A stretch of 64,000 nucleotides of DNA from Candidatus Spongiisociaceae bacterium. Its GTDB lineage: Bacteria; Actinomycetota; Acidimicrobiia; Spongiisociales; Spongiisociaceae. A program made the translations under genes and the position numbers. Of the stretch, positions 38,120 to 62,679 are shown piece by piece. Under the pieces are notes generated by a model. That model made no database searches, was not told where the DNA came from, and worked only from the letters and a program-made list of their open reading frames with translations. The stretch is from NCBI GenBank assembly GCA_965262915.1, contig OZ253564.1:576001-640000 (forward strand), written 5' to 3'. Numbering within the stretch: the first letter of the stretch is position 1; every line of letters begins with the position of its first letter.

Positions 38120-38720
38120 TCCATCCCGGGTCCAGCCCCAGCAGTCCAGAGTGCCGTTTGTCCGGATCCCGCAAGTGTGGAGGAAGCCTGCGCGCGACGG
38201 TGTCGGGTTCCGGCTGGTTGGTGTGTCCGTGCCAACGTACTATGGCGCCCTCGAGACCGAACCTGGCCGGCACCGAACAACGGTAGTCGTTGTAGCGGAC
38301 CTGCTCCCGGTGGGTGTCCAGGTAGGGATCGTCCCACCGGTCCACCGCCAGGCGGTCACCACGGTGGTTCCACAACCCCGCCGGGTGGGGGCGGCGTCGC
38401 AGGGTCGAAGGTCGAAGACCTGCTCGGGCGGCCAGACCCTCAACGTTGACCGGGGCTGCCACATCACCGCACCATCCCGACCAGCCCCACCACACCGCAT
38501 ATGTGGCCCGGTCCGTATGCGACCACCCTCACCCGATACGGCCCCCCGAATCACGGTCATAAACAATCCCTCCACCTCAGCCACCAAACGCCGGTACCGC
38601 ACCGGGCAACGGGCCACCCCACAAGAAGGCGTCCTCCACCCCCACAGCCACCACCAGACCCGCCAGCACCAACCCTGCTCGATCCAACCGGCCTTCGGTA
38701 TCGGGGGTTAGCGGAATATC

Positions 38721-39755
38721 TAGATGGTTAGTTCCAAGGTTTTGGTGGTCATATGCGATGAGGGAGCGTGCTGGGCCTGGTCGTTGGGTGGTTTCGTTGT
38801 GCCAGATGACGGTGGTGAGGGCGAGTATCGGTTGGAGGACAGGTGCCACAACACCCGCTTTGGTGCGTCCGCCGTGACGTTCGAGATCGAGTTGGCCCTT
38901 GAAGGTTTGGAAGATCGATTCGATGATGTGGCGGAAGGGTCGGAGGAACCGCTGGCCGCTTCTGGGCGCTTCTGTTTTTGTGGCGGGGCGGATGAGGGTC
39001 ATGTGGGCCTCGTTGAGGTCTTCCTCGAAGCTGGCGCTTCGGTATCCTTTGTCCGCCATGAGAGTTTGGCCCGCTCGGGCTAGGCGGGCGTGGGCGATCA
39101 TTTCTGTGGCGATGTCGCGTTCGTCCGCTTTGGCCGGCGCCAGCGCGAAGGCTATCGGCAGTCCCGATGGGGTGGCCACCAGGTGGAAGCGCAGCCCCCA
39201 GAAGTAGCGGGAGTGGGAGGCGCAGTAGCCGTATTCGGCCCATCCCCCCAGGTCAGAGCGTTGTTGGGTTGTGCGGCTGCGTCCGCACTCGACGGGCGTG
39301 GAGTCCACCAACCACAGGTCGTCATGCCACGACGGGCAGTCCCGGGCCAGCCAGGCGATGATGTGTTGCATCGTGAGGCCGAGGCGGCGTAGCCGCCTGT
39401 TGTAGGCGGATCGGGTAGGCAGATACGGGAACCATGGTTTGAGATGGGCGTGCGCGTAGCGCAAGAAACGGGCCTCGGAAGTGTATCTGAGCAGCGACTG
39501 GATCACCGCCAGGGTGACCAACTCGGCGTCGGACAGCTTGGGAGCGATCCCCACCGCGGGTCGCTCCGGCACCCACTCGGGATGCTGGATCAACAGATCA
39601 TCAACCGTCACATATACTGTGGTAGCAAGGGTGTCCAGGTCCGGGTTCATACCAGGTCCTCCGGGATCGGGGAAGTTTTTTCACCCCGGATTCTGGACAC
39701 CCCCACCCCCAAAACGGTGGATTATCCACCCACACCCCTTGGAACTACTCATCTA
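38721..39755 (-). mobile_element. IS982-family element, copy 2 (transposase starts at 39650; stop codon lost)
   Basis: IRs TAGATGGTTAGTTCCAAGG / TAGATGAGTAGTTCCAAGG; CTAG junctions; the TAA after AYDH in copy 1 is CAA here, so the ORF reads through to 38577. Confidence 0.9.
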
Positions 39756-40682: not shown

Positions 40683-41947
<1,265 letters not shown>

Positions 41948-44840: not shown

Positions 44841-45156
44841 TGGAGTTCCCCCCATGGGCTGGACACTTGGTTTATGCGGCCGTGTGATGGTAGTAGTTGT
44901 CCTCCCATTCGTTCGGTGGCTGTTGCCCGATCGTGGAGTGAAGCCGGCGGGGGTTGTACCAGGCTTCGATCCAGTACCGGATCGATAGGCGGGCCTGGCG
45001 GCGGCTTCGGTAGTCGGCTCGGTTGACGAGTTCCTTCTTGAGGGTGCCGAGAAACGACTCGGCGGCGGCGTTGTCCCAGCACACCCCGATCCGTCCCACC
45101 GACTGTGCGATGCCATATGCCCGGCACAGCTGGGCGGTGGCCCTCAAGGTGAATTG
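44841..45156 (-). mobile_element. 3' part of an IS3 element (integrase C-terminus and right IR)
   Basis: QFT...QSVGRIGVCWDNAAAESF..TLKKE...WYN.RRLHSTIG; IR TGGAGTTCCCCCCATGGGCTGGAC at 44841 resembles the IR at 42116. Confidence 0.85.
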
Positions 45157-45431
45157 CCCGGGTTCAAGGGGTCGTTGCAACACTGCCTTGTTTGAGGGAG
45201 TGTAGGTTGGAGTTCCCCCCGGTGGCCGGACGAGACGCGTGATTTCACGCCGTGGCTGGCTGAGAACCTGGACCTGTTGGGGGAGGAACTCGGGCCGGGT
45301 TTGGAGGCTGTCGGGAGTCGGATCCAAACCGTTTTGTGCCTTTCGTGAAGGGAATCTGGGGAGTTACGACCCTCTATTCGGGCCCTGGGGTGGTACCAGG
45401 CTACCGGTTGCCTTCACAGAAGGGGCATTCC
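45157..45431 (+). repeat. 275-bp inverted repeat, right copy
   Basis: Reverse complement of 40683-40957. Confidence 0.93.
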
Positions 45432-46298: not shown

Positions 46299-46892
46299 GT
46301 GGACATCGTTGCTGATCTCGCCGTGATCGGCGCCGCCTCGGTGCTGTTGCTCAGCGGATCCTCCAAGATCGCGCGGCCTCGCCCCATCACGACCACCCTG
46401 GTGATGCTTTGGAACACCGCCACCAGACAGGCCCGGTCAGCTGCCTCGCCTCGGCTCGGGCTGATGCTGGGAGTCGGCGAGATGGGCCTCGCCGCCGTCG
46501 TTGCGACGGTGCGGTCCTGGCCGGCGGGCCTAGTCCTTGTGCTCTTCGCAGCGGGATTGGCGGCCGCGGGGGTGATGGGAGTGCTGAGCGGCGGCGAGGT
46601 ACCGTGCGCCTGCTTCGGCAAGGGCGACCGGACCCTGGGCTACGGGCACATCCTGCAGCTTCCGTTGTGGATCTTCGCAGCGTGGGCGGTGGCCCAGGGC
46701 GGAACCCTGTTCAGCGCGGGCACACGTCTCGAGCAGACGCTGGCAATGCTCGCAGTGTGCACCGCCCTCTCGACAGCGTTGCAGGTTGCGAGAGCATGGC
46801 GAGCGGTCTACCCGATCGCGCGGCAGCGCAGGAAGGGCGCGGCTGAGGCTGCGGTCCTGCCGCCGGCCGGTGCGGGGGTCTCCTCGTGGTAG
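46299..46892 (+). CDS. MauE/DoxX-family redox membrane protein
   Basis: LLLSG.SKI, GE..LA, VPCACFG (the CxCFG motif of MauE), several TM helices; start at GTG 46299 or ATG 46248. Confidence 0.8.
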   Translation: MDIVADLAVIGAASVLLLSGSSKIARPRPITTTLVMLWNTATRQARSAASPRLGLMLGVGEMGLAAVVATVRSWPAGLVLVLFAAGLAAAGVMGVLSGGEVPCACFGKGDRTLGYGHILQLPLWIFAAWAVAQGGTLFSAGTRLEQTLAMLAVCTALSTALQVARAWRAVYPIARQRRKGAAEAAVLPPAGAGVSSW

Positions 46893-47506
46893 TCGCCGCC
46901 CTGATCATCTCGATTGCGGCCCTGCTCCTGAGCGGGTTCGTCGCGCTGGCTGTAATGGAGGTGGTCGCCGAGAGGCCAGCCGGTCCGAGACAGCCTGCCG
47001 AGGACTCCATCGAGGAGTTCGAGCTGTCACCGGCAGTGGCCGGGACCTCGGCCAGCTCGCACGGGCTGCCCGATCGGATCGACGGCGCCTCCGCACACCT
47101 TGTGCTCGTGATCTCGCCTCGGTGCTCGATGTGCAAGAAGCTGGCCCTCTCCTTCGACGGGAAGATTCCAGCCCATCTCACGGTCGTGGTGGCCGCGACG
47201 GACGCCGTCCGCATGAGGAAATGGGCCGCCGAGAGCGGGCTGTCGCTGCGGAGGACGGTGTTCGACGACGACATGACCATCGTGAACGGGCTCGAGGTGT
47301 CCTCTAGCCCGACAGTCGTGGGGTTCGTCAACGGCACGGTCGCGTTCGTCGCAGGAGTTGGCGGCCGCCGAGCTCTGGATGACCTGCTGGAGCAACGCAT
47401 TGCGATTCTCGAGCAGGTTCCGAGCGTCGACGCCCCCGAGGAGACAGATGCCGCCGTGTCGGATACCGGCGACGGCTCGCGGGGGAGCCGGACCCGTGGT
47501 CCTTGA
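46886..47506 (+). CDS. Membrane-anchored thioredoxin-like protein (MauD/TlpA-like)
   Basis: N-terminal TM helix, LVLVISPRCSMCKKL (CxxC), V.SSP.VV cis-Pro loop. Confidence 0.78.
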   Translation: MVVAALIISIAALLLSGFVALAVMEVVAERPAGPRQPAEDSIEEFELSPAVAGTSASSHGLPDRIDGASAHLVLVISPRCSMCKKLALSFDGKIPAHLTVVVAATDAVRMRKWAAESGLSLRRTVFDDDMTIVNGLEVSSSPTVVGFVNGTVAFVAGVGGRRALDDLLEQRIAILEQVPSVDAPEETDAAVSDTGDGSRGSRTRGP

Positions 47507-48194
47507 GTTCGTGTCGGCTGTCGGTCTGTTCCTGGGCGGATATCTGCAGAGACACAGTCCTTGAGGCGTCTCCTTCGTGGGCCAGTTCGGCCCCACGTTT
47601 GCGACGAGCAGAGGCATTCGACGGGTGTCTCGCAGCGGTGTCTACGTGCTGGGCGCCCTGCTGTCCTCGGGGATGTTCATTCTCGCGGTCGACATGACAG
47701 CGGGGCACTTCTCTCGAGATGTCCTAGGCGGCGACCGGTCCCGGGCCGCGGCGCTCGTCCTGGTGAGCGTGCTGATCCTCATCGACGCGATCCGGCTGTG
47801 GGGCGGACGCTCCACCTCCTTCGGACCGAACCGGCAGACCCCCTACGCCTGGCGAGCGAGAGGCTGGCCGGGCGTTCTCGGCTGGGGCCTCGACACCGGG
47901 GTTCCGCTCACGACGATTAGGACATCGTCGCTTCCCGTGCTGGGCGTGGTGCTGGTGGCCACCGGACACGGCGGCCCGCTGCACGGCCTGGCCTACGGCT
48001 CGGGCCTGGCGGTCGGCCTTCTCGGCGGAGTGGTTGCGATGTCGCCGCGCGGCGACATCCGAAGCGTGATGGCCGAACTGCTGCGGCGCCGCCGCGCTCT
48101 GAGGCCGGTCATGGTGACGGTGGCTCCGTCCGCGCTGATGATCGGCGTGCTCGTGACCGCCGCGCTGGCGGCGCCCGGCACGGCGGCACCATGA
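47496..48194 (+). CDS. MauF/CcdA-like multi-pass membrane protein with in-frame UGA at codon 23 (putative selenocysteine)
   Basis: RBS GGGGGAG and GTG 47496; reads MVLEFVSAVGLFLGGYLQRHSP[TGA]GVSFVGQF... in one frame; RQTP..W...GWGLDTG..TT; hairpin at 47577-47596. Confidence 0.7.
47565..47606 (+). promoter_or_regulatory. Candidate bacterial SECIS element
   Basis: Upper stem GTGGGCC/GGCCCCAC (one bulge), loop AGTTC 19 nt after the UGA, lower stem CGTC/GACG. Confidence 0.6.
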
Positions 48195-51100
48195 GGCGGG
48201 CTGGGATCCGCGCGGGGCCCGCGGCAGGGGTTGCCGGGCGAGTCCGCCGGGTGTTGTCCGGGCTGGTGCTTGCCGCGGTGGTCGCAGCCGGGATCGGACC
48301 CGGGGGGTCTTGGGCTCAAGTGGGCGACGGCGACGATGAGGGTCGTCATGACGGCTTCGATGATGTGGTCTCGGGTGTGCACGCGTCGGCGATTGATGCT
48401 CTGGCCCAGTTGGGGGTCTTCGAGGGCACCGAGTGCGGCGAGGGGCTGTTCTGTCCCGACGAGCCCATCCGGCGCTGGGTGATGGCGGTGTGGCTGGTGC
48501 GCGTCCTCGAGACGCCGTTGCCCGAGGCCGGCGCGTCGCGCTTCTCTGACGTGGACCCCCAGCAGTGGTGGTCGCGCCATGTGGAGGCCCTGGCCGATCT
48601 GGAGATCACCGCAGGCTGCTCGCGATCGCCGGCCCGGTACTGCCCCGACGAGGTGGTCAGCCGGGCCCAGATGGCGTCGTTCCTGGCCCGGGCGTTCCAC
48701 TTGGAGCCCTCCGAGGAGGGTGAGCGCTTCAGCGACGTGTCGGGCGGCGTGCATGCGGCGAACATCGACGCGCTGGCCGCGAGCGGTATCACCGCAGGCT
48801 GCGCTACCGACCCGGCGCGCTATTGCCCGACCAGGGCCACCACCCGCGCCCAGATGGCATCGTTCCTCAAACGGGCCCGCACCATGTTCATAGGCCCCTG
48901 CCCGACCGAGGCCACAGACGACACCGGCACCACCACACCAAGCACCGGGTCGCCCCCAAGCACCGGGTCGCCCCCAAGCACCGGGTCGCCCCCAAGCACC
49001 GGGTCGCCCCCAAGCACCGGGTCGCCCCCAAGCACCGGGTCGCCCCCAAGCACCGGGTCGCCCCCAAGCACCGGGTCGCCCCCAAGCACCAGGCCTGGTG
49101 TGGTGGTGCCGGGTGCGCCACGCGGTGTGGTGGTGGCGCCGGATGATGGGGAATTGTTGGTGTCCTGGTCGGCGCCGAGCGAGCTGGTGGGCGTGTCGTC
49201 GGTGACCTATGTGGTGGAGTGGCGCTTGGACACCCAGCCCTTTGGCGGGGGGCGCCGGTTGTTGGGTGTGTCGGAGGAGTCCGCGACGATCTCGGGGTTG
49301 GTGAACGGCGCGATGTACGCCGTGCGTGTGTCGGCGGTCTTGTCGGGAAGCCGGGGGCCATGGTCCGAGCCGGTGCCGGGCGCGCCCGGGCGGGTGCTGG
49401 GCGCGCCCCGTGAACTCGTGACCGAGAGGGGCGATCGGGAGTTGGGGTTGTCTTGGGAGCCGCCGGGTGATCCGGGAGGCTTGGAGCCGGGAGACTTCCT
49501 CGCGCCTGAGTACTATGTCGTGCAGTGGGCCGTGGAGGGCGAGTCCTACAGCCTGGACCGCCTGCTCGAGGTGACGGAGACCTCCGCGACGATCACAGGG
49601 CTGGACAACGGCACCCTCTACAGAGTGCGGGTCGCCGCGGTGCGGGTCGTCGCGGTGCCCGTTGCGAGCCCGGAGCTGTGGTCGGAGGCCACTGGCGTGC
49701 CTGCGGTCCCGCCGGACGCGCCCAGCGGCCTGATGGCCGCGGCCGGCGATCAACAGCTGATGCTGTCGTGGGTGTCGGGCGAGTCGGGAGGCTTGCCGGT
49801 AACCGAGCAGCGGCTGCAGTGGCGCTCGAACTCGCAGTTCTTCAGCGAGGACCGGCAACTCGTCATCGGCGACGACACCTCCGCGACGATCACAGGGCTG
49901 GACAACGGCACCCGCTATTGGGTGCGGGTGGCCGCGGTGAGCGGTGCCGGGGTCTCGGACTGGTCCCCTCATGCGTCGGGCCGCCCCGCGACGCGGCCGG
50001 GGGCGCCCGGCGGTCTGGAGGCGACCCGGGACAACCAGTCCTTGGTGCTGTCCTGGGACCGGCCGGCGGACAGCGGCGGGGCGGTGTCGTTGAGCTATGT
50101 GGTGCAGTGGCGCTCGGACGCCCAGTCCTTCAGTGCGGCACGCGAACTGGAGGCGGCGGACACGTTCGCGACGGTGACCTCGCTGGTGAACGGCACGGTC
50201 CACTGGGTGCGTGTCGCGGCCGTCAACGACGACGCGGACGCGGGCCGGGGGGCATGGTCCGAGCCGGTGTCGCGCACCCCGGCCACGAGGCCCGGGGCGC
50301 CACGGCGTGTGGCGGCGACTCGCGGCGACGGGTCTTTGGCTGTGACCTGGGCTGCGCCGGCCGAGTCGGGCGGCGCAGCGGTGGAGGGCTATGTGGTGCA
50401 GTGGCGCTCGGACGCCCAGTCCTTCAGCACGGCCCGCCAGCGGACCACCACTTCGACGTCGGCGACCGTGCCTGGGCTGGTGAACGGCACCACCTACACG
50501 GTGCGGGTCGCCGCGGTCAACAACGTCGGCGCCGGGGCGTGGTCCGAGCCGGTGTCGCGCACCCCGGCCACGAGGCCCGGGGCGCCACGGCGTGTGGCGG
50601 CGACTCGCGGCGACGGGTCTTTGGCTGTGACCTGGGCTGCGCCGGCCGAGTCGGGCGGCGCAGCGGTGGAGGGCTATGTGGTGCAGTGGCATGCCAGCGG
50701 CCAGTCCTTCAGCACGGCCCGCCAGCGGACCACCACTTCGATGTCGGCGACCGTGCCTGGGCTGGTGAACGGCACCGCCTACTGGGTGCGGGTCGCCGCG
50801 GTCAACAACGTCGGCGCCGGGGCGTGGTCCGAGCCGGTGTCGCGCACCCCGGCGACGAGGCCGGGGGCGCCGGTGATCGAAGCGGTCGACGGGGGCAGCG
50901 GCCGGCTCGTGGTTCGCTGGGCCGCGCCCGCGAACGGCGGGTTTCCGGTGAGGAGCTACCAGCTTCAGTGGAAAACTGACAGCCAGACCTTCAGCACGGC
51001 CCGCCAGCGGACCACCACTTCGACGTCGGCGACCGTGCCTGGGCTGGTGAACGGCACCGCCTACTGGGTGCGGGTCGCCGCGGTCAACAACGTCGGCGCG

Positions 51101-54100
51101 GGGGCGTGGTCCGAGCCGGTGTCGGGCATCCCGGCGTCGGCGCCGGGGGCGCCACGCGACCTGGTCGTGACACCCGGCAACGGCCAGCTCGGACTGTCCT
51201 GGCAGCCGCCCGGCGACACCGGCGACGTCGCGGTCGAGTACGTGGTGCAGTGGCGCTCGGGATCCGAGCAATACAGCTCGGCCCGCAGCCAGACCACCGG
51301 CGAGGACTACGCCACGGTCACGGGGCTGGCCAACGGCACCGCCTACTGGGTGCAGGTCACCGCGAACAGCTCCGCGGGCGCGGGGGGCTCCACGGAGGCC
51401 ACCAACGTCGTTCCACGCACCACCCCGTCGGCGCCGCTGCGCCTGGAGGCCACCGTCGGCGACGGCTCACTTGCCCTGCAATGGCAGCCGCCGTCCAGCG
51501 ACGGCGGCGACAGCGTCAGCGGCTACATCGTCCAGTGGAGGGCCGACGGCGAGGACTACGCCACGACCCGCCAACTCGATGCGGCGGGCACGTCCGCGGC
51601 GATAACCGGGCTGGCCAACGGCACCCCCCACACCGTTCGGGTCGCCGCGGTCAACGCGGCGGGCGCCGGGGCATGGTCTACTGAGGCCACGAAGACCCCC
51701 GCAGGCGTGCCGGACGCGCCCCGCGAGGTCACCGCCGCGAGCGGCGACCGGGCCCTGGACGTGTCCTGGGAGCCACCCCCGAACAACGGCTCAGAGATCA
51801 AGCACTATGTGGTCCAATGGAAGGCGGGCGGCGACTACAGCACGGCCCGCCAGCGGACCACCACTTCGACGTCGGCGACCGTGCCTGGGCTGGTGAACGG
51901 CACCGCCTACTGGGTGCGGGTCGCCGCGGTCAACAACGTCGGCGCCGGGGCGTGGTCCGAGCCGGTGTCGCGCACCCCGGCGACGAGGCCGGGGGCGCCG
52001 GTGATCGAAGCGGTCGACGGGGGCAGCGGCCGGCTCGTGGTTCGCTGGGCCGCGCCCGCGAACGGCGGGTCTCCGGTGAGGAGCTACCAGCTTCAGTGGA
52101 AAACTGACAGCCAGACCTTCAGCACGGCCCGCCAGCGGACCACCACTTCGACGTCGGCGACCGTGCCTGGGCTGGTGAACGGCACCGCCTACTGGGTGCG
52201 GGTCGCCGCGGTCAACAACGTCGGCGCGGGGGCGTGGTCCGAGCCGGTGTCGGGCATCCCGGCGTCGGCGCCGGGGGCGCCACGCGACCTGGTCGTGACA
52301 CCCGGCAACGGCCAGCTCGGACTGTCCTGGCAGCCGCCCGGCGACACCGGCGACGTCGCGGTCGAGTACGTGGTGCAGTGGCGCTCGGGATCCGAGCAAT
52401 ACAGCTCGGCCCGCAGCCAGACCACCGGCGAGGACTACGCCACGGTCACGGGGCTGGCCAACGGCACCGCCTACTGGGTGCAGGTCACCGCGAACAGCTC
52501 CGCGGGCGCGGGGGGCTCCACGGAGGCCACCAACGTCGTTCCACGCACCACCCCGTCGGCGCCGCTGCGCCTGGAGGCCACCGTCGGCGACGGCTCACTT
52601 GCCCTGCAATGGCAGCCGCCGTCCAGCGACGGCGGCGACAGCGTCAGCGGCTACATCGTCCAGTGGAGGGCCGACGGCGAGGACTACGCCACGACCCGCC
52701 AACTCGATGCGGCGGGCACGTCCGCGGCGATAACCGGGCTGGCCAACGGCACCCCCCACACCGTTCGGGTCGCCGCGGTCAACGCGGCGGGCGCCGGGGC
52801 ATGGTCTACTGAGGCCACGAAGACCCCCGCAGGCGTGCCGGACGCGCCCCGCGAGGTCACCGCCGCGAGCGGCGACCGGGCCCTGGACGTGTCCTGGGAG
52901 CCACCCCCGAACAACGGCTCAGAGATCAAGCACTATGTGGTCCAATGGAAGGCGGGCGGCGACTACAGCACGGCCCGCCAGCTGGAGGCGGCGGGCAACA
53001 CGGCGACGGTGACCGCTCTGGTGAACGGCACCGCCTACTGGGTGCGGGTCGCCGCGGTCAACAACGTCGGCGCCGGGCCGTGGTCCACCGAGGCCACGAA
53101 GACCGCCGCCACCGTGCCGAGCGCGCCCCGCAACCTGACAGTCGAACGCCGCAACTCGGCCCTGGCCGCGACGTGGACCGCGCCCGCCTCAACCGGCGGC
53201 CTGGCGATCGAGGAGTACCAGATTCAGTGGACGACCGACCCCAGCGACTACGGACCGGACAAGGAGGGCACCGTGACAGGCACGACGGCGACGCTCCCCT
53301 TCCTGGTCAACGGCACCGAATACATGGTGCGGGTCGCGGCGGTCAACGGCATCGGCGCCGGGGCATGGTCCACCCAGGAGTCAGGCACTCCCTCCCCTCC
53401 CCCGACGGTGCCGGGGCGGCCCGAGATCGACGCGGTGGACGCTGCGGACCGCCGGCTGGTGGTGCGCTGGAGCCCGCCCGCGAACGACGGCGGCGACGAC
53501 ATCACCGGCTACATAGTGCGCTGGCGCACCCAACTCGGCTCCTACAACGCCGCCAACACGCACCCGGGGATCGGCGCGTCGGTATCGAGCGACACGATCG
53601 ACGAGCTGGACAAGAACACCCGGTACTGGGTACAGGTTGCCGCGGTCAACGGCATCGGCGCCGGGCGGTGGTCCGACGCTGTGTCGGCCACCATCCCGAT
53701 GACCGCGCCGGGCGCGCCTCTCGGCCTGGCGGTCGCTGGAGGCGACGCCGAGCTCCAGCTGTCATGGAGGCAGCCCCACGACACCGGAGGCGCCCAGCCC
53801 CTCACCTACGTCGTGCAATGGCGCTCCGGCGACCAGCAATACGACACGACACGCCAACAGACGACCGTCTCGACGTCAGCGACGATCACGGGGCTCGACA
53901 ACGGCACCCGATACTGGGTGAAGGTCACCGCGACCAACGCCGAGGGGTCCACACCCGGCGTCGAACGCGACGGCACCCCGCTGACCGGGCCCGGCCCACC
54001 CACGATGGTCGAGTTCACAAGCGACCCCATGGCGCCGGGCCGGCTGGTGCTGTCGTGGGCCGCTCCCGACGACAACGGCGGAACCGCCCTCACCGGATAC

Positions 54101-56704
54101 ATGGTGCGCTGGAGAGTCCACGGCGAGCGCGACCACGAAGAGGATCGTGTGGGCGCCGCGAGCCTCAGCCACCGGATCGACGGGCTGGTCAGCGGCACCA
54201 GGTACTGGGCACAGGTCCGCGCCTTCAACCGGGTCGGCAACGGGCCGTGGTCAGACCTCCTGTCCACGGTGCCGCTCGCCGTGCCGGGCGCGCCCCGAAC
54301 CGTCGCAGCAGAAGCCCGCGACGCGGGTCTCGGAGTGACCTGGCAGGCTCCTGCCAGCGACGGCGGCGACCCGATCACCGAATACAAGATCCAATGGAAA
54401 ACCACCTCCGGCGCGTTCGGCGCGGCCGCCGCCGTGGACGCCGCCACACACCTCCATGAGATCACCGCGCTCACCAACAACACCCGCTACGTCGTGCAGG
54501 TCGTGGCGGTAAACTCCCAAGGCGACGGCAGCGCCGCCCAGATCCACGCCACGCCGCTGCCGCCCACTGTCCCCGGACCGCCCATCATCGCCGCCGTGGT
54601 GCCTCGCGAGGGGGGAGTCACGGTCCAGTGGCTGCCGCCTCCCGACGACGGCAGAGCGCCCGTGAGCTCCTACCGGCTGAGCTGGCCCGGCGGCCACGCC
54701 GAGATCACCGACCCGACCGACCTCAGCCATGACATCGTCGGACTGGACTTCGCCCTCGACTCCGTGATCAGGATCTCCGCGGTCAACTCCCAGGGCGAGG
54801 GAACCCCCGCCGCGGTCAGGGCCCGCTCCAATCAGGTCCCGGGCCCGCCGCAACGCGTGCTCATCGCTGAGGACGACGGCAGCCTCGTCGTGCGGTGGAA
54901 ACCGCCCGGCGTCGTGTCGGCGTTCGTCGCCTCATACAGCGGGTTCGTGGTCACCGAGTACCTGGTGCAGTGGAAGACAAGCGGCCAGGAATACAGCACC
55001 GACCGCCAGGCCACGGTCACACCGGACTCCATCCCGGACAACTCCTACGGGGTCTACACGATCACGGGCCTCAACAACGGCTCGGACTACTCGGTGCGCG
55101 TCATCGCGGTCAACGAGGGCCGCCGGGGGCCGCCCGGGGAGGTGTCGGGTCGGCCGAGGCCGGCAGTGGAGGGCGCACCGCCTCGTGTCGTCGCCTACAA
55201 CTACGGCGAACGCACGGGTGAACTCTGGGTGGATTGGTGGCCGGCCATACGAGAACACGACGGGGTGCAGGCCTCCATCTACGAGCTGCGTTGGGGGCCT
55301 GCCGGCCAGGCGAGCAGTCCCTCCGGATACCCGAGGATCCCCGTGGGGCCCCGCGTCATCGACGTCGGCTCTGACGCAGTGGGCACCGTGCTCCGCGTGC
55401 GGGTGAGAGCAGTCTATGGTGGCACGTTCGGGCCGTGGGCCGAGACGCTGGTCGCGGTGGCGGCGCCTCCGACCATCCCGCAGCGACTCACTGCGACCCC
55501 CGGCGACGGCAGTGCATCGTTGCAGTGGGATCCGCCCGAGTCCGACAGGGGGTCGCCGATCTCTGCGTATGTGGTGATCGTGAACGAGGTCGACGACATC
55601 GAAGACCAGGCGTCCGTCGTCGTGACCGGCGAGAGCTACGAGATGACCGGGCTTGAGAACGGCCGGACATACACGCTTCATGTAGCGGCGCTCAACAACG
55701 TGGGCATCGGATATCGCAATGAAGTGATGGTGACGCCCAACGGCGAGATCGACGGGCCGAGCGTGCCCGGCGCGCCGGAGGACGTGGTGGTGGTGCCCGG
55801 CGACGGTTCGCTGGCGGTGTCGTGGGCGGCGCCGGCCGATCACGGCGGGGCCGCCGCCAGCGCGTACCAGGTGAGCTGGGAGGCGGCCGGGCAGCCCGGC
55901 ACAGCCCAGCAGGCCGATGTGGGCGCGGCGTTGAGCCATGTGATCACTGGCCTGGTCAACGGCACCGACTATGCGGTGGAGGTGACCGCAGCCAACTCCG
56001 CCGGGACGGGGCAGGCAGCGGCGGTGACAGCTGCGCCCGCGGCGGCGGGGGCGCAGCCGGGCGCGCCGGGCGGGATCGTGGTGGTGCCCGGCGACGGCAT
56101 GCTGTTGGTGTCATGGCATGCGGCGACCGACAGCACCGGGGCCGCCGCCAGCAGGTACGAGGTGAGCTGGGAGGCGGCCGGGCAGCCCGGCACAGCCCAG
56201 CAGGCCGATGTGGGCGCGGCGTTGAGCCATGTGATCACTGGCCTGGTCAACGGCACCGACTATGTGGTGGAGGTGACCGCAGCCAACTCCGCCGGCAAGG
56301 GACCGGCCATAGTGACGCGGGCGGTGCCCACCGGGGTGCCGAGCGCGCCCCGCGGAGTGGTCGCCGCGCGCAGCACGGTCGTGGCCGGCACGGCCAGGAT
56401 CCTGCTGAACTGGCTTCCGCCCGACGACAACGGCGGCACCAAGATCACCGCCTACCGGGTGTCATGGCGCGCCGACGGCGAGAGCTACGACGACTCGCAG
56501 TGCTCGCACCGCCGAGCCGATACCACCGCCACGGGCCACCCCATCGGCGACTTGGACGCCGACACCACTTACCACGTTCGGGTGGCCGCCATCAACGCCG
56601 CGGGGCCCGGCCCCGCAACCGAGATAACGATCCCGCCCGGGAACACTGCGGCAGCTGACAGGAGGCACACAGAATGGGCATCGCCAGACACTCGGAACAG
56701 ATGA
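48191..56704 (+). CDS. Giant secreted surface protein: signal peptide, three SLH-like repeats, Ser/Thr/Pro linker, 26 fibronectin type III domains
   Basis: F.DV...H...I.ALA..G(I/V)..GC...YCP....RAQMASFL repeats; PGAP...L.VSW..P...Y.VQW...GL.NGT.Y.VRVAAVN..G.G.WS repeats. Confidence 0.93.
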   Translation: MRRAGIRAGPAAGVAGRVRRVLSGLVLAAVVAAGIGPGGSWAQVGDGDDEGRHDGFDDVVSGVHASAIDALAQLGVFEGTECGEGLFCPDEPIRRWVMAVWLVRVLETPLPEAGASRFSDVDPQQWWSRHVEALADLEITAGCSRSPARYCPDEVVSRAQMASFLARAFHLEPSEEGERFSDVSGGVHAANIDALAASGITAGCATDPARYCPTRATTRAQMASFLKRARTMFIGPCPTEATDDTGTTTPSTGSPPSTGSPPSTGSPPSTGSPPSTGSPPSTGSPPSTGSPPSTGSPPSTRPGVVVPGAPRGVVVAPDDGELLVSWSAPSELVGVSSVTYVVEWRLDTQPFGGGRRLLGVSEESATISGLVNGAMYAVRVSAVLSGSRGPWSEPVPGAPGRVLGAPRELVTERGDRELGLSWEPPGDPGGLEPGDFLAPEYYVVQWAVEGESYSLDRLLEVTETSATITGLDNGTLYRVRVAAVRVVAVPVASPELWSEATGVPAVPPDAPSGLMAAAGDQQLMLSWVSGESGGLPVTEQRLQWRSNSQFFSEDRQLVIGDDTSATITGLDNGTRYWVRVAAVSGAGVSDWSPHASGRPATRPGAPGGLEATRDNQSLVLSWDRPADSGGAVSLSYVVQWRSDAQSFSAARELEAADTFATVTSLVNGTVHWVRVAAVNDDADAGRGAWSEPVSRTPATRPGAPRRVAATRGDGSLAVTWAAPAESGGAAVEGYVVQWRSDAQSFSTARQRTTTSTSATVPGLVNGTTYTVRVAAVNNVGAGAWSEPVSRTPATRPGAPRRVAATRGDGSLAVTWAAPAESGGAAVEGYVVQWHASGQSFSTARQRTTTSMSATVPGLVNGTAYWVRVAAVNNVGAGAWSEPVSRTPATRPGAPVIEAVDGGSGRLVVRWAAPANGGFPVRSYQLQWKTDSQTFSTARQRTTTSTSATVPGLVNGTAYWVRVAAVNNVGAGAWSEPVSGIPASAPGAPRDLVVTPGNGQLGLSWQPPGDTGDVAVEYVVQWRSGSEQYSSARSQTTGEDYATVTGLANGTAYWVQVTANSSAGAGGSTEATNVVPRTTPSAPLRLEATVGDGSLALQWQPPSSDGGDSVSGYIVQWRADGEDYATTRQLDAAGTSAAITGLANGTPHTVRVAAVNAAGAGAWSTEATKTPAGVPDAPREVTAASGDRALDVSWEPPPNNGSEIKHYVVQWKAGGDYSTARQRTTTSTSATVPGLVNGTAYWVRVAAVNNVGAGAWSEPVSRTPATRPGAPVIEAVDGGSGRLVVRWAAPANGGSPVRSYQLQWKTDSQTFSTARQRTTTSTSATVPGLVNGTAYWVRVAAVNNVGAGAWSEPVSGIPASAPGAPRDLVVTPGNGQLGLSWQPPGDTGDVAVEYVVQWRSGSEQYSSARSQTTGEDYATVTGLANGTAYWVQVTANSSAGAGGSTEATNVVPRTTPSAPLRLEATVGDGSLALQWQPPSSDGGDSVSGYIVQWRADGEDYATTRQLDAAGTSAAITGLANGTPHTVRVAAVNAAGAGAWSTEATKTPAGVPDAPREVTAASGDRALDVSWEPPPNNGSEIKHYVVQWKAGGDYSTARQLEAAGNTATVTALVNGTAYWVRVAAVNNVGAGPWSTEATKTAATVPSAPRNLTVERRNSALAATWTAPASTGGLAIEEYQIQWTTDPSDYGPDKEGTVTGTTATLPFLVNGTEYMVRVAAVNGIGAGAWSTQESGTPSPPPTVPGRPEIDAVDAADRRLVVRWSPPANDGGDDITGYIVRWRTQLGSYNAANTHPGIGASVSSDTIDELDKNTRYWVQVAAVNGIGAGRWSDAVSATIPMTAPGAPLGLAVAGGDAELQLSWRQPHDTGGAQPLTYVVQWRSGDQQYDTTRQQTTVSTSATITGLDNGTRYWVKVTATNAEGSTPGVERDGTPLTGPGPPTMVEFTSDPMAPGRLVLSWAAPDDNGGTALTGYMVRWRVHGERDHEEDRVGAASLSHRIDGLVSGTRYWAQVRAFNRVGNGPWSDLLSTVPLAVPGAPRTVAAEARDAGLGVTWQAPASDGGDPITEYKIQWKTTSGAFGAAAAVDAATHLHEITALTNNTRYVVQVVAVNSQGDGSAAQIHATPLPPTVPGPPIIAAVVPREGGVTVQWLPPPDDGRAPVSSYRLSWPGGHAEITDPTDLSHDIVGLDFALDSVIRISAVNSQGEGTPAAVRARSNQVPGPPQRVLIAEDDGSLVVRWKPPGVVSAFVASYSGFVVTEYLVQWKTSGQEYSTDRQATVTPDSIPDNSYGVYTITGLNNGSDYSVRVIAVNEGRRGPPGEVSGRPRPAVEGAPPRVVAYNYGERTGELWVDWWPAIREHDGVQASIYELRWGPAGQASSPSGYPRIPVGPRVIDVGSDAVGTVLRVRVRAVYGGTFGPWAETLVAVAAPPTIPQRLTATPGDGSASLQWDPPESDRGSPISAYVVIVNEVDDIEDQASVVVTGESYEMTGLENGRTYTLHVAALNNVGIGYRNEVMVTPNGEIDGPSVPGAPEDVVVVPGDGSLAVSWAAPADHGGAAASAYQVSWEAAGQPGTAQQADVGAALSHVITGLVNGTDYAVEVTAANSAGTGQAAAVTAAPAAAGAQPGAPGGIVVVPGDGMLLVSWHAATDSTGAAASRYEVSWEAAGQPGTAQQADVGAALSHVITGLVNGTDYVVEVTAANSAGKGPAIVTRAVPTGVPSAPRGVVAARSTVVAGTARILLNWLPPDDNGGTKITAYRVSWRADGESYDDSQCSHRRADTTATGHPIGDLDADTTYHVRVAAINAAGPGPATEITIPPGNTAAADRRHTEWASPDTRNR
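48941..49090 (+). repeat. 18-bp coding tandem repeat x8.3 (STGSPP linker)
   Basis: Perfect AGCACCGGGTCGCCCCCA units. Confidence 0.97.
50711..52982 (+). repeat. 1128-bp near-perfect tandem duplication (4 FN3 domains per unit)
   Basis: Identical shadow ORFs at 51106/52234 and 51061/52189, offset 1128; two substitutions seen. Confidence 0.92.
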
Positions 56705-57102
56705 CAGGACGCGCCAAGCACACAGCCGACAGGACGCGCCGAGCATGGCCGACAGGACGCGCCAAGCACACAGCCGACCGGCCCCACCGACCGGACCGTC
56801 GAGCGTTCCTGCGTTGCGCCAGCGGGGCCGCGCTGTCGATTCTGGCGGTGGGAGCGCGAGCCGCACTGCATCCCCGGCCCGCGTCGGCAGGCCCCGCGGC
56901 GTCGTGTTGCGGTCTCGCGCGAGACGCCAATGCGTGGTGCCCGTACTTCTGCGGAGAGATCGGCGGAGGATTCAGCTGTTGGGCATGCAACAACGGGGCG
57001 TGCCTGTGCTGTGAGTGCATCCCCGGCGGGCTGGCCAGCTGCTTCTATTTCTTTGCGAGCTGCTCCTACAGCACTGGGTGCTGCGAGAGGGCGGCCGATT
57101 AG
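56701..57102 (+). CDS. Tat-exported cysteine-rich miniprotein (14 Cys in a predicted 70-aa mature part)
   Basis: ATGA overlap with the FN3 gene; DRRAFL twin-arginine motif, hydrophobic stretch, PASA cleavage site; SCC...WCPYFC...CWAC....CLCCEC...C...C...GCC. Confidence 0.85.
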   Translation: MTGRAKHTADRTRRAWPTGRAKHTADRPHRPDRRAFLRCASGAALSILAVGARAALHPRPASAGPAASCCGLARDANAWCPYFCGEIGGGFSCWACNNGACLCCECIPGGLASCFYFFASCSYSTGCCERAAD

Positions 57103-57188
57103 GCACCGAGCGACACCGGAGGCGACTGTGGACTCAACAGACCGACCAACATCAGGCGCCCGGGCGCGCGGGCTCCGCGGGGGCGACC

Positions 57189-57599
57189 ATGACTGACTCG
57201 AACAAGACCACCCGTCCAAGGCCCGGGAGCCTCGGCTCCCAAGAGTTCGTGGACTTCCTGGCGCAAGTGCGCCGCGACCCGCGCCGGACACCGGCGCCCT
57301 CGCCCATCAACGCCGCCGCCGTCGAGTTGGGCACCTACGAGTCCGACGCTGGCGAGGGCCATGTATGGGTGCGCATAGACAGCACCGGCGAGACCGTGCG
57401 AGCCGCGCTCGACGGCTTCCTGCCCGAGTATCGCCTCGAGCGCGGTGACGAGCTGGGAGCAACAGTTGTGGACGGCGCCTGGCGGACGATCCCCACCGTG
57501 AAGTACACAATCAGGCACTCCGACCGGATCGATTTCTGGACCAAGAACCGCCGGACCGGGGGCTTTCGCCAGCTCGCCACGAGCAGCTACGAGCAGTAG
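57189..57599 (+). CDS. Hypothetical protein (136 aa), probable last gene of the operon
   Basis: ATG after GGGG; GC3-biased; beta-rich-looking core; no family recognised. Confidence 0.65.
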   Translation: MTDSNKTTRPRPGSLGSQEFVDFLAQVRRDPRRTPAPSPINAAAVELGTYESDAGEGHVWVRIDSTGETVRAALDGFLPEYRLERGDELGATVVDGAWRTIPTVKYTIRHSDRIDFWTKNRRTGGFRQLATSSYEQ

Positions 57600-58824: not shown

Positions 58825-61800
58825 CTATGCCTTGTCTTTGGTGATGGTGATCGTGTCGCCGCTGGGGGTTACTGATTGGACGGTGATGGTGTAGCCACCG
58901 ATGGTGACGCTCTGTCCCTGGGTGAGTATGGGGTAATCGTTTACTTGTGCGTTGCCGGTGTCACCCGCCATTTTTAGGGGGAGACGACGTGTGGCGAGGG
59001 CAGCGTCGACGGTGTACACGAGAACTCCTTCGGTCGCTAACGCGGTGTCGTAGCCGAGTTTGTGTCGGGACTCCATAACGATCGCTTTGTGTCTCGAGAT
59101 GGGTATGGCAGCCATTGCTGTGCCGGTGCCGGGGTTGGCAACGGGGCTGAGGGTCACGGTCGCTTCGGTTCCGGTCACGCAGCGAATCTGGGCGGGTTCG
59201 AGCCAGCCGAGCTGCCAGCGGCTCCAAGCCAGCATTTCTGATCCCCCGGTGTAGGTGGAGTACGGGGCGCTGTCGCGGGTGAGGAAGCGAGCTTGCAGTC
59301 CCATGAGACCGAACCCTGTGGTTACCCATTTCTGACCCTCGGGAGGGTTGGGTAGCTTGTGGTCGGAGGTTGGGTAGAGATCCAAGAGTCCGAGATTGTG
59401 GGCGAGTTCGTGCGCTGCCGTGTGACCCCACGAGGTTGGCTTCCCAGGTTCTGGCCTCGGTTGGGAGTTGATAAGGGTGATGCTCTGGATGGTTCCTTCG
59501 TCTGTGCGGACTTTGTGTAATCCTGCTATTGCTGACCAGAAGTGGGAACCGGGCATCACGACCATCATGATGTCGTGTCCGGCAAAGTCGAGGTCGGGGT
59601 CGGCTAACCTGGCGGCCTCGTCGACGACGTACGTTTCGGGCTCCGTAGTACCTCCGCCAACGTAGTGGTCATAGTTGTGTTCGGGTCTGAGCCAGCGGTG
59701 CAGGGGGTTGAACTCGACATCTAGTTTCCCGTAGCTGGCCGCCTCGAGGTATTCCTCTGCGTAGGGGAGGCCGAGCGTGGCCTCGTCATGACTGGTATGG
59801 GCTGCCTCCTTGTCGGGGAAGTCCACGAAGATAACCGCCACCCGCAGGAGACCGGTGGAGGTTGGGGCCCATCCGGGCAGAGGAAACCCTGCCGTGGCAC
59901 CTGAGGTGCCCACCGGTTGGCACATGCCCGGGTCCGGTCCGTCGGCCCAGACAGCATATCGAACATTCGCCGGCACAGAAACAACCGGTGCTCGACCCCA
60001 GCAGACGACAGCACCATCGGGGCGTAGCCCACAAGAGTACCCATCGGAATACCCGCTCTTTTTGACTGAGACCGCTTCGAACCGTCCCGTGGGAGGCTGA
60101 GCCTGCCCGACCAAGTTGCCCCAGCAGATAACAGCACCACCGGTACGTAGCCCACAGGAATACCGATCACCGGCCGCCACTGCAATAAACATCCCATCCG
60201 GCGGGGTGGCCTCACCTGAACCGTTGGCACCCCAACAAGCCACCGTACCGTCGAGACGCAGCCCACAAGAATGCGAACCACCAGCCGAAACAGCAGTAAA
60301 CCGACCATCCGGCGGGGTGGCCTGACCCAAACCCTTCGACCCCCAGCAGGCCACCGTACCGTCGACGCGTACCCCACAAGAATGCGAACCACCAGCCGCT
60401 ACCGCGGTGAACGTCCCATCCGGCGGGGTGGCCTGACCCGAACCGTTGTACCCCCAGCAGGCGACGGTGCCGTCGAGGCGTACCCCACATGAATGCCCAC
60501 TACCGGCCGAAACAGAAGCGAACCGACCGTCCGGCGGGGTGGCCTGACCCAAACCGTTGTACCCCCAGCAGGCCACCGTACCGTCGACGCGTACCCCACA
60601 AGAGTGCGAACCACCAGCCGCGACTGCGGTGAACGTCCCATCCGGCGGGGTGGCCTGACCCGAACCGTTGGCACCCCAGCAGGCCACCGTACCGTCGACG
60701 CGTACCCCACATGAATGCAAATTACCGACAGAACTGGTGACGAACACACCGTCGGGCGGTTCCGGCTCACCGGACCAGTCGAAACCCCAGCACACAACAC
60801 TTCCACCGGCGCGTACCCCACATGAATGCAAATTACCGGCCGAAACAGCAGTAAACCGACCGTCCGGCGGGTCGGCCTGACCGTTTTCGTTAGCCCCCCA
60901 GCACACAACCGTCCCGTCGGTACGCAGCCCGCACATATGCCGGCTAGTGCCCGAGACAGTGCTGAACCGTCCCTCGGGTGGGTCGAACAGACCCCAGCAC
61001 TCAACACCGGCATCGGTGCGCAGCCCGCACGAATGGGCATTGCCCGTGGCAACGTCGGTGAACTTGCCCTCCGGCGGGTCGGCCTGACCGTTTTCGTTAG
61101 CCCCCCAGCACACAACCGTCCCGTCCGTGCGTATCCCACACGTATGAACGACACTCGTGGCAACGTCGGTGAACTTGCCCTCCGGCGGGTCGGCCTGACC
61201 GTTTTCGTTAGCCCCCCAGCAGACAACCGTCCCGTCCGTGCGTATCCCACACGTGTAATATCTACCCGCCGAAACGGAGACGAAGGTCCCCTCCGGGACA
61301 CCGGTCCGAGAAAATGGGGATCCCCAGCAGGCAACAGTACCGTCGGTGCGTATCCCGCACGAATGGTCCCAGCCCGACGAGATGACGGTGAACTCACCTT
61401 GCGGCGGTTCGGCCTGACCCTGAGTGTTCTCACCCCAACAAACGACCGTGCCGTCGGCGAGCAGCCCACACGAATGAAAACCACCCGCAGCCACCTCGAC
61501 GAACCGTTCCCCCGACGGCTCGAGGTCAAGTGTGAGTGCCCGGGTAAGGAATGTGGCCATCTGCGCTCGGGTGGTGTCCCGCCCCGGGCAGTAGCGGAGG
61601 GGTTCTGTCCTACACCCTGCCGTGACACCCGAAGCGGCCAATGCATCAATATTCGCCGCGTGGACACCGCCCTCAACATCTGCGAACCCCGCCGACGGTG
61701 CCGAAGACAGCCCGAACGCGCGGACCAGAAACGACGCCATCCGAGCACGATTAACCGTCTCGGTAGGACAAAACCTCGCTGGCTTCGTCGCGCAACCCGC

Positions 61801-62679
61801 CGTAACACCCAGATCCGCCAGACGCTCCACATAAGGCGCCCACCACTGCGACTCGTCCACATCCGCGAACCGCGACGACCCCACCGACGCCGGGTCGGCC
61901 CCGTCGAGGATACGCACCAGCCACACCGCCATCACCCAACGCTGCACCGGAACCGTCGGACAGAACTCCCCCGGCCCGCATTCGGTCCCCTCAAACACCC
62001 CATCAGCCGCAAGGGTGCTGATCGCCGCCTCATGGGTAGAGCCCTCCACATCCCAAAAGTCCCCCGAAGTACCCACGTCGGTAGCCGGCGGCGCCGTAGT
62101 AGGAGCAGTAGCCGGAGAGGTAGTGGCTGATCCTCCTCCTACCTCTTCGATCAGCCACCCCCCACCAGACTGCCTAGAAGCCACAAACGTGTACTCCACC
62201 CCATTCACCGACGCAGCCCGAAGCTCGATACGCTGCCCCGACGTGAAAAACAACAGACGTCCAGAACCCGAATCGTCCACCCGGAACTCCACGTCGGTAC
62301 CCGGATACCTACACGACCCACCCGGCTCCACCACCAACCCCACATAACAATCACCACCCCCCTGCGCCAACACCCCAACCGCCAACACCCCAACCGCCAA
62401 CACCCCAGAAGCCACCACCCCAAGCACCCCGACAACGCCAAACGGGAACGCCCCCGACATGGAAAAGAACTGTGACCGTCGCACCGACCGGCCCTTCCGT
62501 CGAGAACCCCCACCAACCCGACGGGAACCAAGCCCTACCATGCCCACAACCTTCCGAACTTCCATAACCACAGAAACCCGCTTTCTTCTCACACCCACAC
62601 ACCCGGAAGTGAGAACGGCGACGAAGCGGCGCGCAATCCAACCGTCCCTCACCGTTGCACCCGGCCCCCGGTCACTCAT
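58825..62679 (-). CDS. Secreted protein: SLH-like repeats, 14 RCC1-like repeats and M6-like zinc metalloprotease domain
   Basis: Same Cys-containing SLH-like module as the FN3 protein; HSCG.R.DG.V.CWG repeats; VIFVDFPD, AHELAHNLGLLDLY, AWSRWQLGWL, GVLVYTVD. The true start may be downstream (about 62460-62560). Confidence 0.88.
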   Translation of the reverse strand: MSDRGPGATVRDGWIARRFVAVLTSGCVGVRRKRVSVVMEVRKVVGMVGLGSRRVGGGSRRKGRSVRRSQFFSMSGAFPFGVVGVLGVVASGVLAVGVLAVGVLAQGGGDCYVGLVVEPGGSCRYPGTDVEFRVDDSGSGRLLFFTSGQRIELRAASVNGVEYTFVASRQSGGGWLIEEVGGGSATTSPATAPTTAPPATDVGTSGDFWDVEGSTHEAAISTLAADGVFEGTECGPGEFCPTVPVQRWVMAVWLVRILDGADPASVGSSRFADVDESQWWAPYVERLADLGVTAGCATKPARFCPTETVNRARMASFLVRAFGLSSAPSAGFADVEGGVHAANIDALAASGVTAGCRTEPLRYCPGRDTTRAQMATFLTRALTLDLEPSGERFVEVAAGGFHSCGLLADGTVVCWGENTQGQAEPPQGEFTVISSGWDHSCGIRTDGTVACWGSPFSRTGVPEGTFVSVSAGRYYTCGIRTDGTVVCWGANENGQADPPEGKFTDVATSVVHTCGIRTDGTVVCWGANENGQADPPEGKFTDVATGNAHSCGLRTDAGVECWGLFDPPEGRFSTVSGTSRHMCGLRTDGTVVCWGANENGQADPPDGRFTAVSAGNLHSCGVRAGGSVVCWGFDWSGEPEPPDGVFVTSSVGNLHSCGVRVDGTVACWGANGSGQATPPDGTFTAVAAGGSHSCGVRVDGTVACWGYNGLGQATPPDGRFASVSAGSGHSCGVRLDGTVACWGYNGSGQATPPDGTFTAVAAGGSHSCGVRVDGTVACWGSKGLGQATPPDGRFTAVSAGGSHSCGLRLDGTVACWGANGSGEATPPDGMFIAVAAGDRYSCGLRTGGAVICWGNLVGQAQPPTGRFEAVSVKKSGYSDGYSCGLRPDGAVVCWGRAPVVSVPANVRYAVWADGPDPGMCQPVGTSGATAGFPLPGWAPTSTGLLRVAVIFVDFPDKEAAHTSHDEATLGLPYAEEYLEAASYGKLDVEFNPLHRWLRPEHNYDHYVGGGTTEPETYVVDEAARLADPDLDFAGHDIMMVVMPGSHFWSAIAGLHKVRTDEGTIQSITLINSQPRPEPGKPTSWGHTAAHELAHNLGLLDLYPTSDHKLPNPPEGQKWVTTGFGLMGLQARFLTRDSAPYSTYTGGSEMLAWSRWQLGWLEPAQIRCVTGTEATVTLSPVANPGTGTAMAAIPISRHKAIVMESRHKLGYDTALATEGVLVYTVDAALATRRLPLKMAGDTGNAQVNDYPILTQGQSVTIGGYTITVQSVTPSGDTITITKDKA

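Follow-up and report, generated by a model that had tools for sequence, protein, structure and literature searches.

A candidate thiol/selenol redox module with a predicted selenocysteine-containing MauF in a Candidatus Spongiisociaceae bacterium

MauF, a membrane protein to which, to our knowledge, no function has been assigned since the mau clusters were described, almost certainly carries selenocysteine (Sec) in a Candidatus Spongiisociaceae bacterium, as judged from the coding sequence of its homologue in a 64,000-nucleotide (nt) stretch of that genome. Within this stretch, hereafter the window, six open reading frames (ORFs) follow one another in one direction (+ strand) across positions 46299-57599, with four overlapping junctions, and probably make up a self-contained thiol/selenol redox module that acts outside the cytoplasm and is devoted to Cys-rich exported clients. 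The Sec/Cys pair marks a residue of redox catalysis and would be the first chemical clue to MauF, with a testable function for it, while the newly proposed MauE disulfide pathway would gain a third component. We slightly favour a broader view, namely that MauF is a catalytic membrane selenol/thiol oxidoreductase and a selenoprotein in most of the Actinomycetota carrying it, that MauE, MauD and MauF form a partly selenium-dependent disulfide machine repeatedly recruited for lineage-specific, Cys-dense secreted proteins, and that the client in sponge-associated Acidimicrobiia is a mini-protein working with a giant FN3 protein, possibly at the host interface. The predicted MauF selenoprotein family stands in the databases only as N-terminally truncated hypothetical proteins, which bears on annotation and on estimates of selenium use. 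The compact six-gene system would bring new clients, the 14-Cys mini-protein and the FN3 giant, and its carriers include sponge-associated lineages, in which eukaryote-like surface proteins are suspected host-interaction factors.

The features of the cluster, with coordinates as positions in the window, are as follows (TM, transmembrane helix; SECIS, selenocysteine insertion sequence; aa, amino acids).

46299..46892, + strand: MauE-like membrane protein, putative DsbB-like disulfide generator (Pfam PF07291; CACFG, TM1 Lys, TM2 Glu)
46886..47506, + strand: membrane-anchored thioredoxin-like protein with SPxCxxC, candidate MauD analogue (translation; weak profile matches)
47496..48194, + strand: MauF-family polytopic membrane protein, gene 3, 232 aa, predicted Sec at residue 23 (profile match)
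47562..47564, + strand: in-frame TGA read as Sec, SP-U-G (Cys at the same site in Cys-form relatives)
47577..47596, + strand: SECIS-like hairpin GUGGGCC-AGUUC-GGCCCCAC, with GU in the loop, starting 12 nt past the UGA codon
48191..56704, + strand: giant secreted SLH-like/FN3 wall protein, 2837 aa (Pfam fn3 and SLH; signal peptide)
56701..57102 (from ATG), + strand: twin-arginine precursor (133 aa) of a ~70-aa 14-Cys mini-protein (11-copy alignment)
57189..57599 (from ATG), + strand: small OB-like protein, 136 aa, without signal peptide (AlphaFold2 model)

The MauE ORF is open from 46248, and its start was set at 46299, a GTG at codon 18 where the homologues also begin; the MauF ORF 47577..48194 extends in frame back to GTG 47496 through the TGA at 47562-47564. 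A preliminary description of the region had listed the four overlapping junctions, all of which proved exact (46886/46892, 47496/47506, ATGA 48191-48194, ATGA 56701-56704), and had noted a CxCFG, a CxxC and an SP[UGA]G motif and a twin-arginine Cys-rich peptide, which stand in the sequence as PCACFG, PRCSMC, HSP-TGA-GVSF and a DRRAFLR leader with a Cys-rich peptide. For the SP[UGA]G motif of the third gene, what we add is its recognition as a selenocysteine site, the most informative feature of the region.

All 13 module copies (the window, 11 related loci and genome G010) have TGA at this site, while the terminal stops of the same MauF genes vary (TAG in six, TGA in three, TAA in one). The 22 codons upstream of the TGA are conserved in frame, and the mean pairwise difference at codon position 3 is 0.52-0.55, above that at positions 1 and 2, across the TGA region. 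This periodicity is shared by the 15 upstream codons, the 4 that separate the TGA from the annotated GTG, and the downstream part. In relatives with a Cys form (G174, G155 and G184, all of another genus), the stop is missing and the site reads WSPCGVSM. The TGA in place of the SPCG Cys would be its chemical equivalent and not a loss, and since Sec replaces Cys here, the residue is argued to be catalytic. The source genome holds the Sec machinery, i.e., tRNA-SeC, selA, selB and a Sec-containing selD, and selB scored above the cut-off in five of the five other TGA-MauF genomes tested.

Gene callers assume another reading, in which the TGA is a true stop, the 22-codon micro-ORF before it is separate and gene 3 starts at GTG 47577. 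This is in our view extremely improbable, even though all 33 database homologues of gene 3 are annotated from directly past the stop (at MGQFGPTF or M[SA]FVGQFGPTF) and a GTG or TTG stands four codons on in 12 of the 13 copies. A true stop would not be expected to align with the Cys of Cys-form relatives and of MauF, to be always TGA beside varying terminal stops, or to leave the coding periodicity unbroken and, in all 13 module copies as well as the 41 other TGA-flagged places described below, the frame intact; moreover, the Val codon after the site in G010 is GTA, which is no start codon, and the Sec machinery is present.

The hairpin past the TGA is kept in 11 of 11 sequences with 89.6% of cells paired, and is consistent with a SECIS element without being proof of one. 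A search of Rfam around the TGA gave no family match, only a chance match to a small RNA (E 5.9). In G010 the hairpin shows a G-C to A-U change. The selD gene, which lies outside the window (G000:C1:4560939-4561865, G000 being the source genome), is itself a selenoprotein gene (GAG-U-ACK, with TGA) and has a hairpin, GGCGCA-GGUUC-UGCGCC, about 27 nt past its UGA codon that resembles the AGUUC-loop hairpin of MauF.

Sec-containing MauF extends well beyond this lineage. Among 401 sampled Actinomycetota genomes (the tallies include seven unpublished ones), 61 had a MauF-family match, and the 63 matches in all comprised 49 with an in-frame TGA, 12 without a stop and two with TAG only. The motif [S/G]P-TGA-G was found at 41 of 41 TGA-flagged places fetched, all from published genomes other than G000, and TGC or TGT stood at the site in four of four checked non-TGA places. 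By these counts, Sec-MauF is commoner than the Cys form in the sampled Actinomycetota, and MauF is a widespread, unannotated predicted selenoprotein of the phylum. Our literature search turned up no report of selenocysteine in connection with MauF or MauE; supplements and unindexed papers may differ. As far as the accessible part of their description goes, the Sec-for-Cys thiol oxidoreductases of Zhang et al. 2006 (PMC1794560) resemble MauF in the Sec/Cys pair, the UGA codon, the downstream hairpin and the selABCD genes, whereas MauF differs from those selenoproteins in being an integral membrane protein, in having no Pfam or NCBIfam model and in a Sec form that outnumbers the Cys form.

Gene 3 is a MauF homologue by profile comparison. 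A profile of its family (11 Sec and 21 Cys forms) matched Paracoccus MauF in hhalign with 98.7% probability (E 2.7e-16, 168 columns), and the TGA codon falls under the Cys of MauF TWSPCG. The Cys-form relative P0045 is 36% identical to P. kondratievae MauF over 180 aa (E 6e-20), the gene-3 protein of the window matches MauF directly with E 3e-4 over just 33 residues around the motif, and tblastn of the Cys form against plasmids returned weak matches to annotated Paracoccus MauF genes. More than 460 database proteins are related to the Cys form, all of them hypothetical or unnamed except for one 'MFS family permease', and no model of Pfam or NCBIfam release 20 matches either the Sec or the Cys form. 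The AlphaFold2 model (predicted local distance difference test, pLDDT, 77) consists of helices only, with helix 2-20 separated from helix 22-37 by a break at S21-P22. Arg-rich loops lie at 38-47, 102-125 and 184-204, and by the positive-inside rule their placement suggests that Sec23 is at the outer face.

The first gene encodes a member of the MauE family (Pfam PF07291, 30.1 bits against a cut-off of 27, E 6.9e-7, residues 22-148), in which C103-A-C-F-G, K23 in TM1 and E61 in TM2 are shared by all nine module copies compared. According to the available part of a recent preprint (10.64898/2026.03.05.709764), MauE of two species replaced DsbB in E. coli, CxC mutants were dead, conservation extends to the F-G after CxC and to a Lys/Glu pair, the disulfides made by MauE probably go to a partner of the thioredoxin family, for example MauD, and MauA occurs in only 10.2% of MauE-bearing species. 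The module resembles this MauE-centred, DsbB-like pathway in its CxC-F-G, Lys, Glu and thioredoxin-family partner, and in the preprint, too, MauE mostly occurs without MauA; K23 and E61 were compared with the preprint's feature list and not position by position. The two differ in that MauE is treated there as a generalist, whereas here it is part of a client-specific module beside a housekeeping DsbB, and the available text of the preprint has zero occurrences of MauF or selenium. In all 11 copies of the thioredoxin-like protein, S77, P78, C80, C83 and S140-S141-P142 (the cis-Pro-like SSP motif) are invariant and an N-terminal hydrophobic helix is kept as a membrane anchor.

The machinery is not part of a methylamine dehydrogenase (MADH) system. 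The source genome is a single 5.06-Mb contig, 96.4% complete, and nowhere in it did Me-amine-dh_L (PF02975), Me-amine-dh_H (PF06433) or CCP_MauG give a Pfam match at E<=1. We therefore rejected a MADH system, the genes for the light subunit, the heavy subunit and MauG not having been found. The absence of MauB and MauG that the preliminary description had noted for the window thus holds for the whole genome by this search. Its concern that the peptide might align with MauA did not materialise either: the mini-protein had no Pfam light-chain match at E<=0.1, and BLASTP to Paracoccus MauA gave E 1.8. Its proposal that the machinery serves a client other than MauA is supported by the mini-protein being unrelated to MauA and by the MADH genes not being found.

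Among known systems, the mauF-E-D-A part of mau clusters comes closest; for it, the plasmid NZ_CP045074.1 of Paracoccus kondratievae (order mauF-B-E-D-A-amicyanin-J-G) served for comparison. In both, the three helper families adjoin a twin-arginine, Cys-rich small exported client (Paracoccus MauA is likewise Cys-rich with a twin-arginine leader), MauE carries C-x-C-F, and the Cys of TWSPCG in Paracoccus MauF aligns with the TGA codon here. The present module differs in that it lacks both MADH subunits (heavy and light), MauG, amicyanin and MauJ, and its client would be an unrelated ~70-aa mini-protein with 14 Cys. It also has Sec instead of Cys in MauF, a thioredoxin that is only weakly MauD-like, and two additions, a giant SLH/FN3 protein and an OB-like protein.

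The six genes are linked well beyond the window. When species-representative genomes were scanned with the gene-3 (MauF) alignment, 11 related loci emerged, in which the other genes were then sought by tblastn. These are from Acidimicrobiales/Acidimicrobiia metagenome-assembled genomes including Candidatus Aldehydirespirator, Spongiisociaceae and Poriferisodalis, and three of them are on the same contigs as genomes G002, G285 and G391. FN3 repeats, the OB-like protein, the mini-protein, the thioredoxin and MauF were all found at 11 of 11 loci and MauE at nine, with no tblastn match at L048 and L050. The module genes lie on a single strand at all 11 loci, in seven gene orders with the window included, and the same-genus genome G002 has all six genes in a different order. 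A gene set that is kept while its order is shuffled is good evidence for one functional unit, and the possibility that the genes are not syntenic in relatives, which had been raised against the operon, is contradicted by their staying together across these loci.

At the level of the order, the MauF query matched 10 of 401 genomes, G000 included, namely six with the Sec form (one degraded), three with the Cys form and one partial. No MauE or thioredoxin was found by tblastn near the Cys-form MauF of G174 and G184, so some MauF genes stand outside such modules. The source genome also has a separate DsbB-family gene and a separate CcdA/DsbD_TM gene outside the module, while VKOR was not found in it; with its own DsbB and CcdA/DsbD_TM elsewhere, the module is an extra set and not housekeeping. 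Three further loci vary the arrangement. The same-genus copy L041 (G007:C12:20000-39900) looks decayed, with a second in-frame TGA in MauF, a split thioredoxin match and only the C-terminal half of MauE, and the peptide, FN3 and OB-like genes were undetected nearby. In the distant same-family genome G010, only a weak peptide-like ORF lies directly upstream of Sec-MauF (TQLFSP-TGA-GLSF) at L042 (G010:C1:118500-138400). At L061 (G428:C14:88911-92603), from another actinobacterial family, Sec-MauF follows a 217-aa ORF containing 27 Cys and precedes a CxxC thioredoxin-like ORF, which suggests the same logic with a different client.

The mini-protein is predicted to be a substrate of twin-arginine translocation (Tat). 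Its precursor has a twin-arginine motif followed by a hydrophobic stretch and an A-x-A cleavage site, and the ~70 residues after the predicted site hold 14 Cys, with one more in the signal. In an alignment of 11 copies, R33, R34, F36 and L37 are nearly invariant, R38 and all 14 Cys are invariant, and the Cys pattern reads CC..WCP..C..CW.C..C.CCEC..C..C.Y..CC. The family is narrow, with only three database matches, no convincing paralogue in the source genome and, among 61 relatives (G000 included), a single clear homologue in G002 (E 5.5e-16). Seven other matches in the relatives (E 5.8e-4 to 0.01) were short or contained stops and were not used. Neither the mini-protein nor the OB-like protein had a Pfam or NCBIfam match above noise, and a PDB search with the mini-protein profile gave only signal-peptide-like noise. 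Two diverged copies, P0171 and P0172, lie on one 168,568-bp metagenomic contig, showing that the client gene can duplicate. In the window, a 25-nt tandem repeat (56703-56778, 3.1 copies) lengthens the n-region of the signal (TGRAKHTADR twice); the other copies have much shorter leaders.

The OB-like protein possibly escorts the pre-peptide. Its AlphaFold2 model (pLDDT 82) has an OB-like beta-barrel core at residues ~45-133, with OB-fold matches in Foldseek (IF1, PAN N-domain, CusF) at E ~1e-2, and its family comprises only 17 representatives in 1.84 billion proteins. A protein-atlas match to unnamed viral clusters (best score 0.87) was not used. Complex prediction of the OB-like protein with the pre-peptide scored 0.32 against 0.01 for the best control, a weak support, with runs agreeing in at least 37% of contacts and a partner pLDDT of at least 55. 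Among 80 solved complexes, 58 reached the mark for this score, as did 2 of 110 mismatched pairs; those that reached it at 0.60 or under were seven of the 80 solved complexes and both mismatches.

The giant protein consists of a signal peptide, three Cys-paired SLH-like repeats, a linker of eight PSTGSP units and about 25 FN3 domains (25 fn3 stretches in Pfam; SLH match E 7.6e-9). Its Cys stand in pairs at 82/88, 143/151 and 204/212, with lone Cys at 237 and 2771. The mini-protein may be displayed on or delivered by this protein, a suggestion whose one ground is the conserved linkage. The PSTGSP linker is encoded by a perfect 18-nt tandem repeat of 8.5 copies (48938-49090) between the SLH-like region and the FN3 array. 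The array at 50094-52388 has a 282-nt period with near-identical kilobase-scale duplications (the spurious ORFs 51106-51684 and 52234-52812 repeat), which suggests a recent repeat expansion.

We propose that MauE would act as a DsbB-like, probably quinone-linked membrane oxidase that makes disulfides with its CxC active site. The thioredoxin-like MauD analogue, anchored in the membrane and equipped with CxxC, would receive them and oxidise the Tat-signal 14-Cys mini-protein, with up to seven disulfides, and probably also the giant protein at the three Cys pairs of its SLH-like repeats. The Sec of MauF, at the kink after TM helix 1, would be the third catalytic partner, which most likely resolves or reshuffles wrong disulfides or relays electrons to or from MauE and the MauD analogue, and the OB-like protein may hold the precursor before its export by Tat.

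Several points weigh against this proposal. Proteins with a Tat signal normally fold before export, which is no less expected of a cofactor-binding protein than of a disulfide knot. The complex of the OB-like protein with the pre-peptide is a weak call, of a kind more often wrong unless the guess was likely beforehand. The covariation of the MauF hairpin is not significant (205 of 500 shuffles were as high), and the hairpin overlaps conserved codons (VGQFGP), so its conservation may be due to coding alone. The MauE and MauF labels of the preliminary description are backed by Pfam and by the profile comparison, respectively, while MauD is weakly backed: the thioredoxin-like protein matches MauD at 31% in hhalign (E 5e-4), has no Pfam match, and otherwise gave weak matches to TIGR01126 pdi_dom (E 0.058) and, by PDB profile, to protein disulfide isomerase (PDI, E ~0.5). 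MauF has only one conserved redox residue in its family alignment and therefore cannot run a CcdA-type two-Cys relay alone. Its best Foldseek match is weak (CcdA 5vkv, prob 0.77, E 0.26, TM-score 0.37), and by VIA it resembles NqrE (Z 6.3, the best) and RnfA (Z 6.0), with CcdA not among the matches listed, although Z values near 6 in helical bundles may reflect a shared arrangement only. CcdA, NqrE and RnfA are small membrane electron-transfer proteins, and such model-based scores do not establish kinship with MauF. Finally, another group has proposed, as related in the available part of the preprint, that MauE is a reductase (10.64898/2026.03.05.709764).

The direction of electron flow through MauF also admits a different assignment. 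Like CcdA, MauF could be on the reducing side and carry electrons outward to keep the thioredoxin reduced as an isomerase, with MauE oxidising the clients directly or via another partner. We hold this to be possible but rather doubtful. Clients with 12-14 Cys need isomerisation, CcdA is the top, if weak, Foldseek match of the MauF model, both proteins are small and polytopic with a redox residue at a helix break, and the SP-C/U-G motif after helix 1 presumably recalls the conserved Cys motif of CcdA/DsbD. MauF, however, has a single conserved redox residue against two in CcdA/DsbD, Pfam DsbD_TM (PF02683) matches neither its Sec nor its Cys form even at E<=10, and the genome already has a separate CcdA homologue.

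Two alternatives concern the client, and under either a metal-binding or a toxin-like mini-protein, MauE, the thioredoxin and MauF would still be redox machinery. The mini-protein could bind a metal or cluster (an Fe-S, Cu or Zn thiolate site), be loaded in the cytoplasm and be exported folded by Tat, with MauE/D/F keeping the thiols right or assembling the site outside and the OB-like protein serving as a loading or proofreading chaperone. The conserved twin-arginine signal, the 14 Cys in ~70 residues with C-x-CC-E-C and CxxC-like spacings and the CusF and Mop-type OB folds among the OB-like protein matches would suit such a binder, as would the complex score with the precursor, low passes of this sort being mostly unreliable. 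We nevertheless consider it unlikely, as the mini-protein matches no metal-binding family, the module enzymes are of the disulfide-forming kind, and MauE/D/F have in MauA a model client that likewise carries a twin-arginine leader yet ends up with disulfides, according to the available part of the preprint (10.64898/2026.03.05.709764). A secreted antimicrobial or host-directed toxin-like peptide, i.e., a disulfide-rich bacteriocin with the OB-like protein for immunity or escort and FN3 as an unrelated linked adhesin, is quite improbable. There is no transporter, protease or typical membrane immunity gene in the module and no similarity to known toxin families, and the linkage of the FN3 gene in 11 of 11 loci argues that the products work together. 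What speaks for a toxin is that the mini-protein is small, Cys-dense, secreted and lineage-restricted, that two paralogous copies share the 168,568-bp contig, and that the set is patchy, the gene-3 protein matching in 3 of 28 other genomes of the family and the peptide giving one clear match among the 61 relatives.

The surroundings of the module in the window contain mobile elements and large repeat proteins. Insertion sequence (IS)-type transposase genes lie directly upstream, comprising a DDE transposase (38577-39650), an IS3-type integrase (rve, 40919-41575) and an rve-like fragment (44872-45327, judged by eye only), all on the - strand, in the stretch between the upstream RCC1 gene and the module; these genes may be tied to the shuffled gene orders of the module. 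Two giant RCC1-repeat proteins flank the module at 34826-38119 and 58825-62679, both on the - strand, with 17 and 12 RCC1_2 stretches, respectively; the second also has an SLH domain, and both are eukaryote-like surface proteins.

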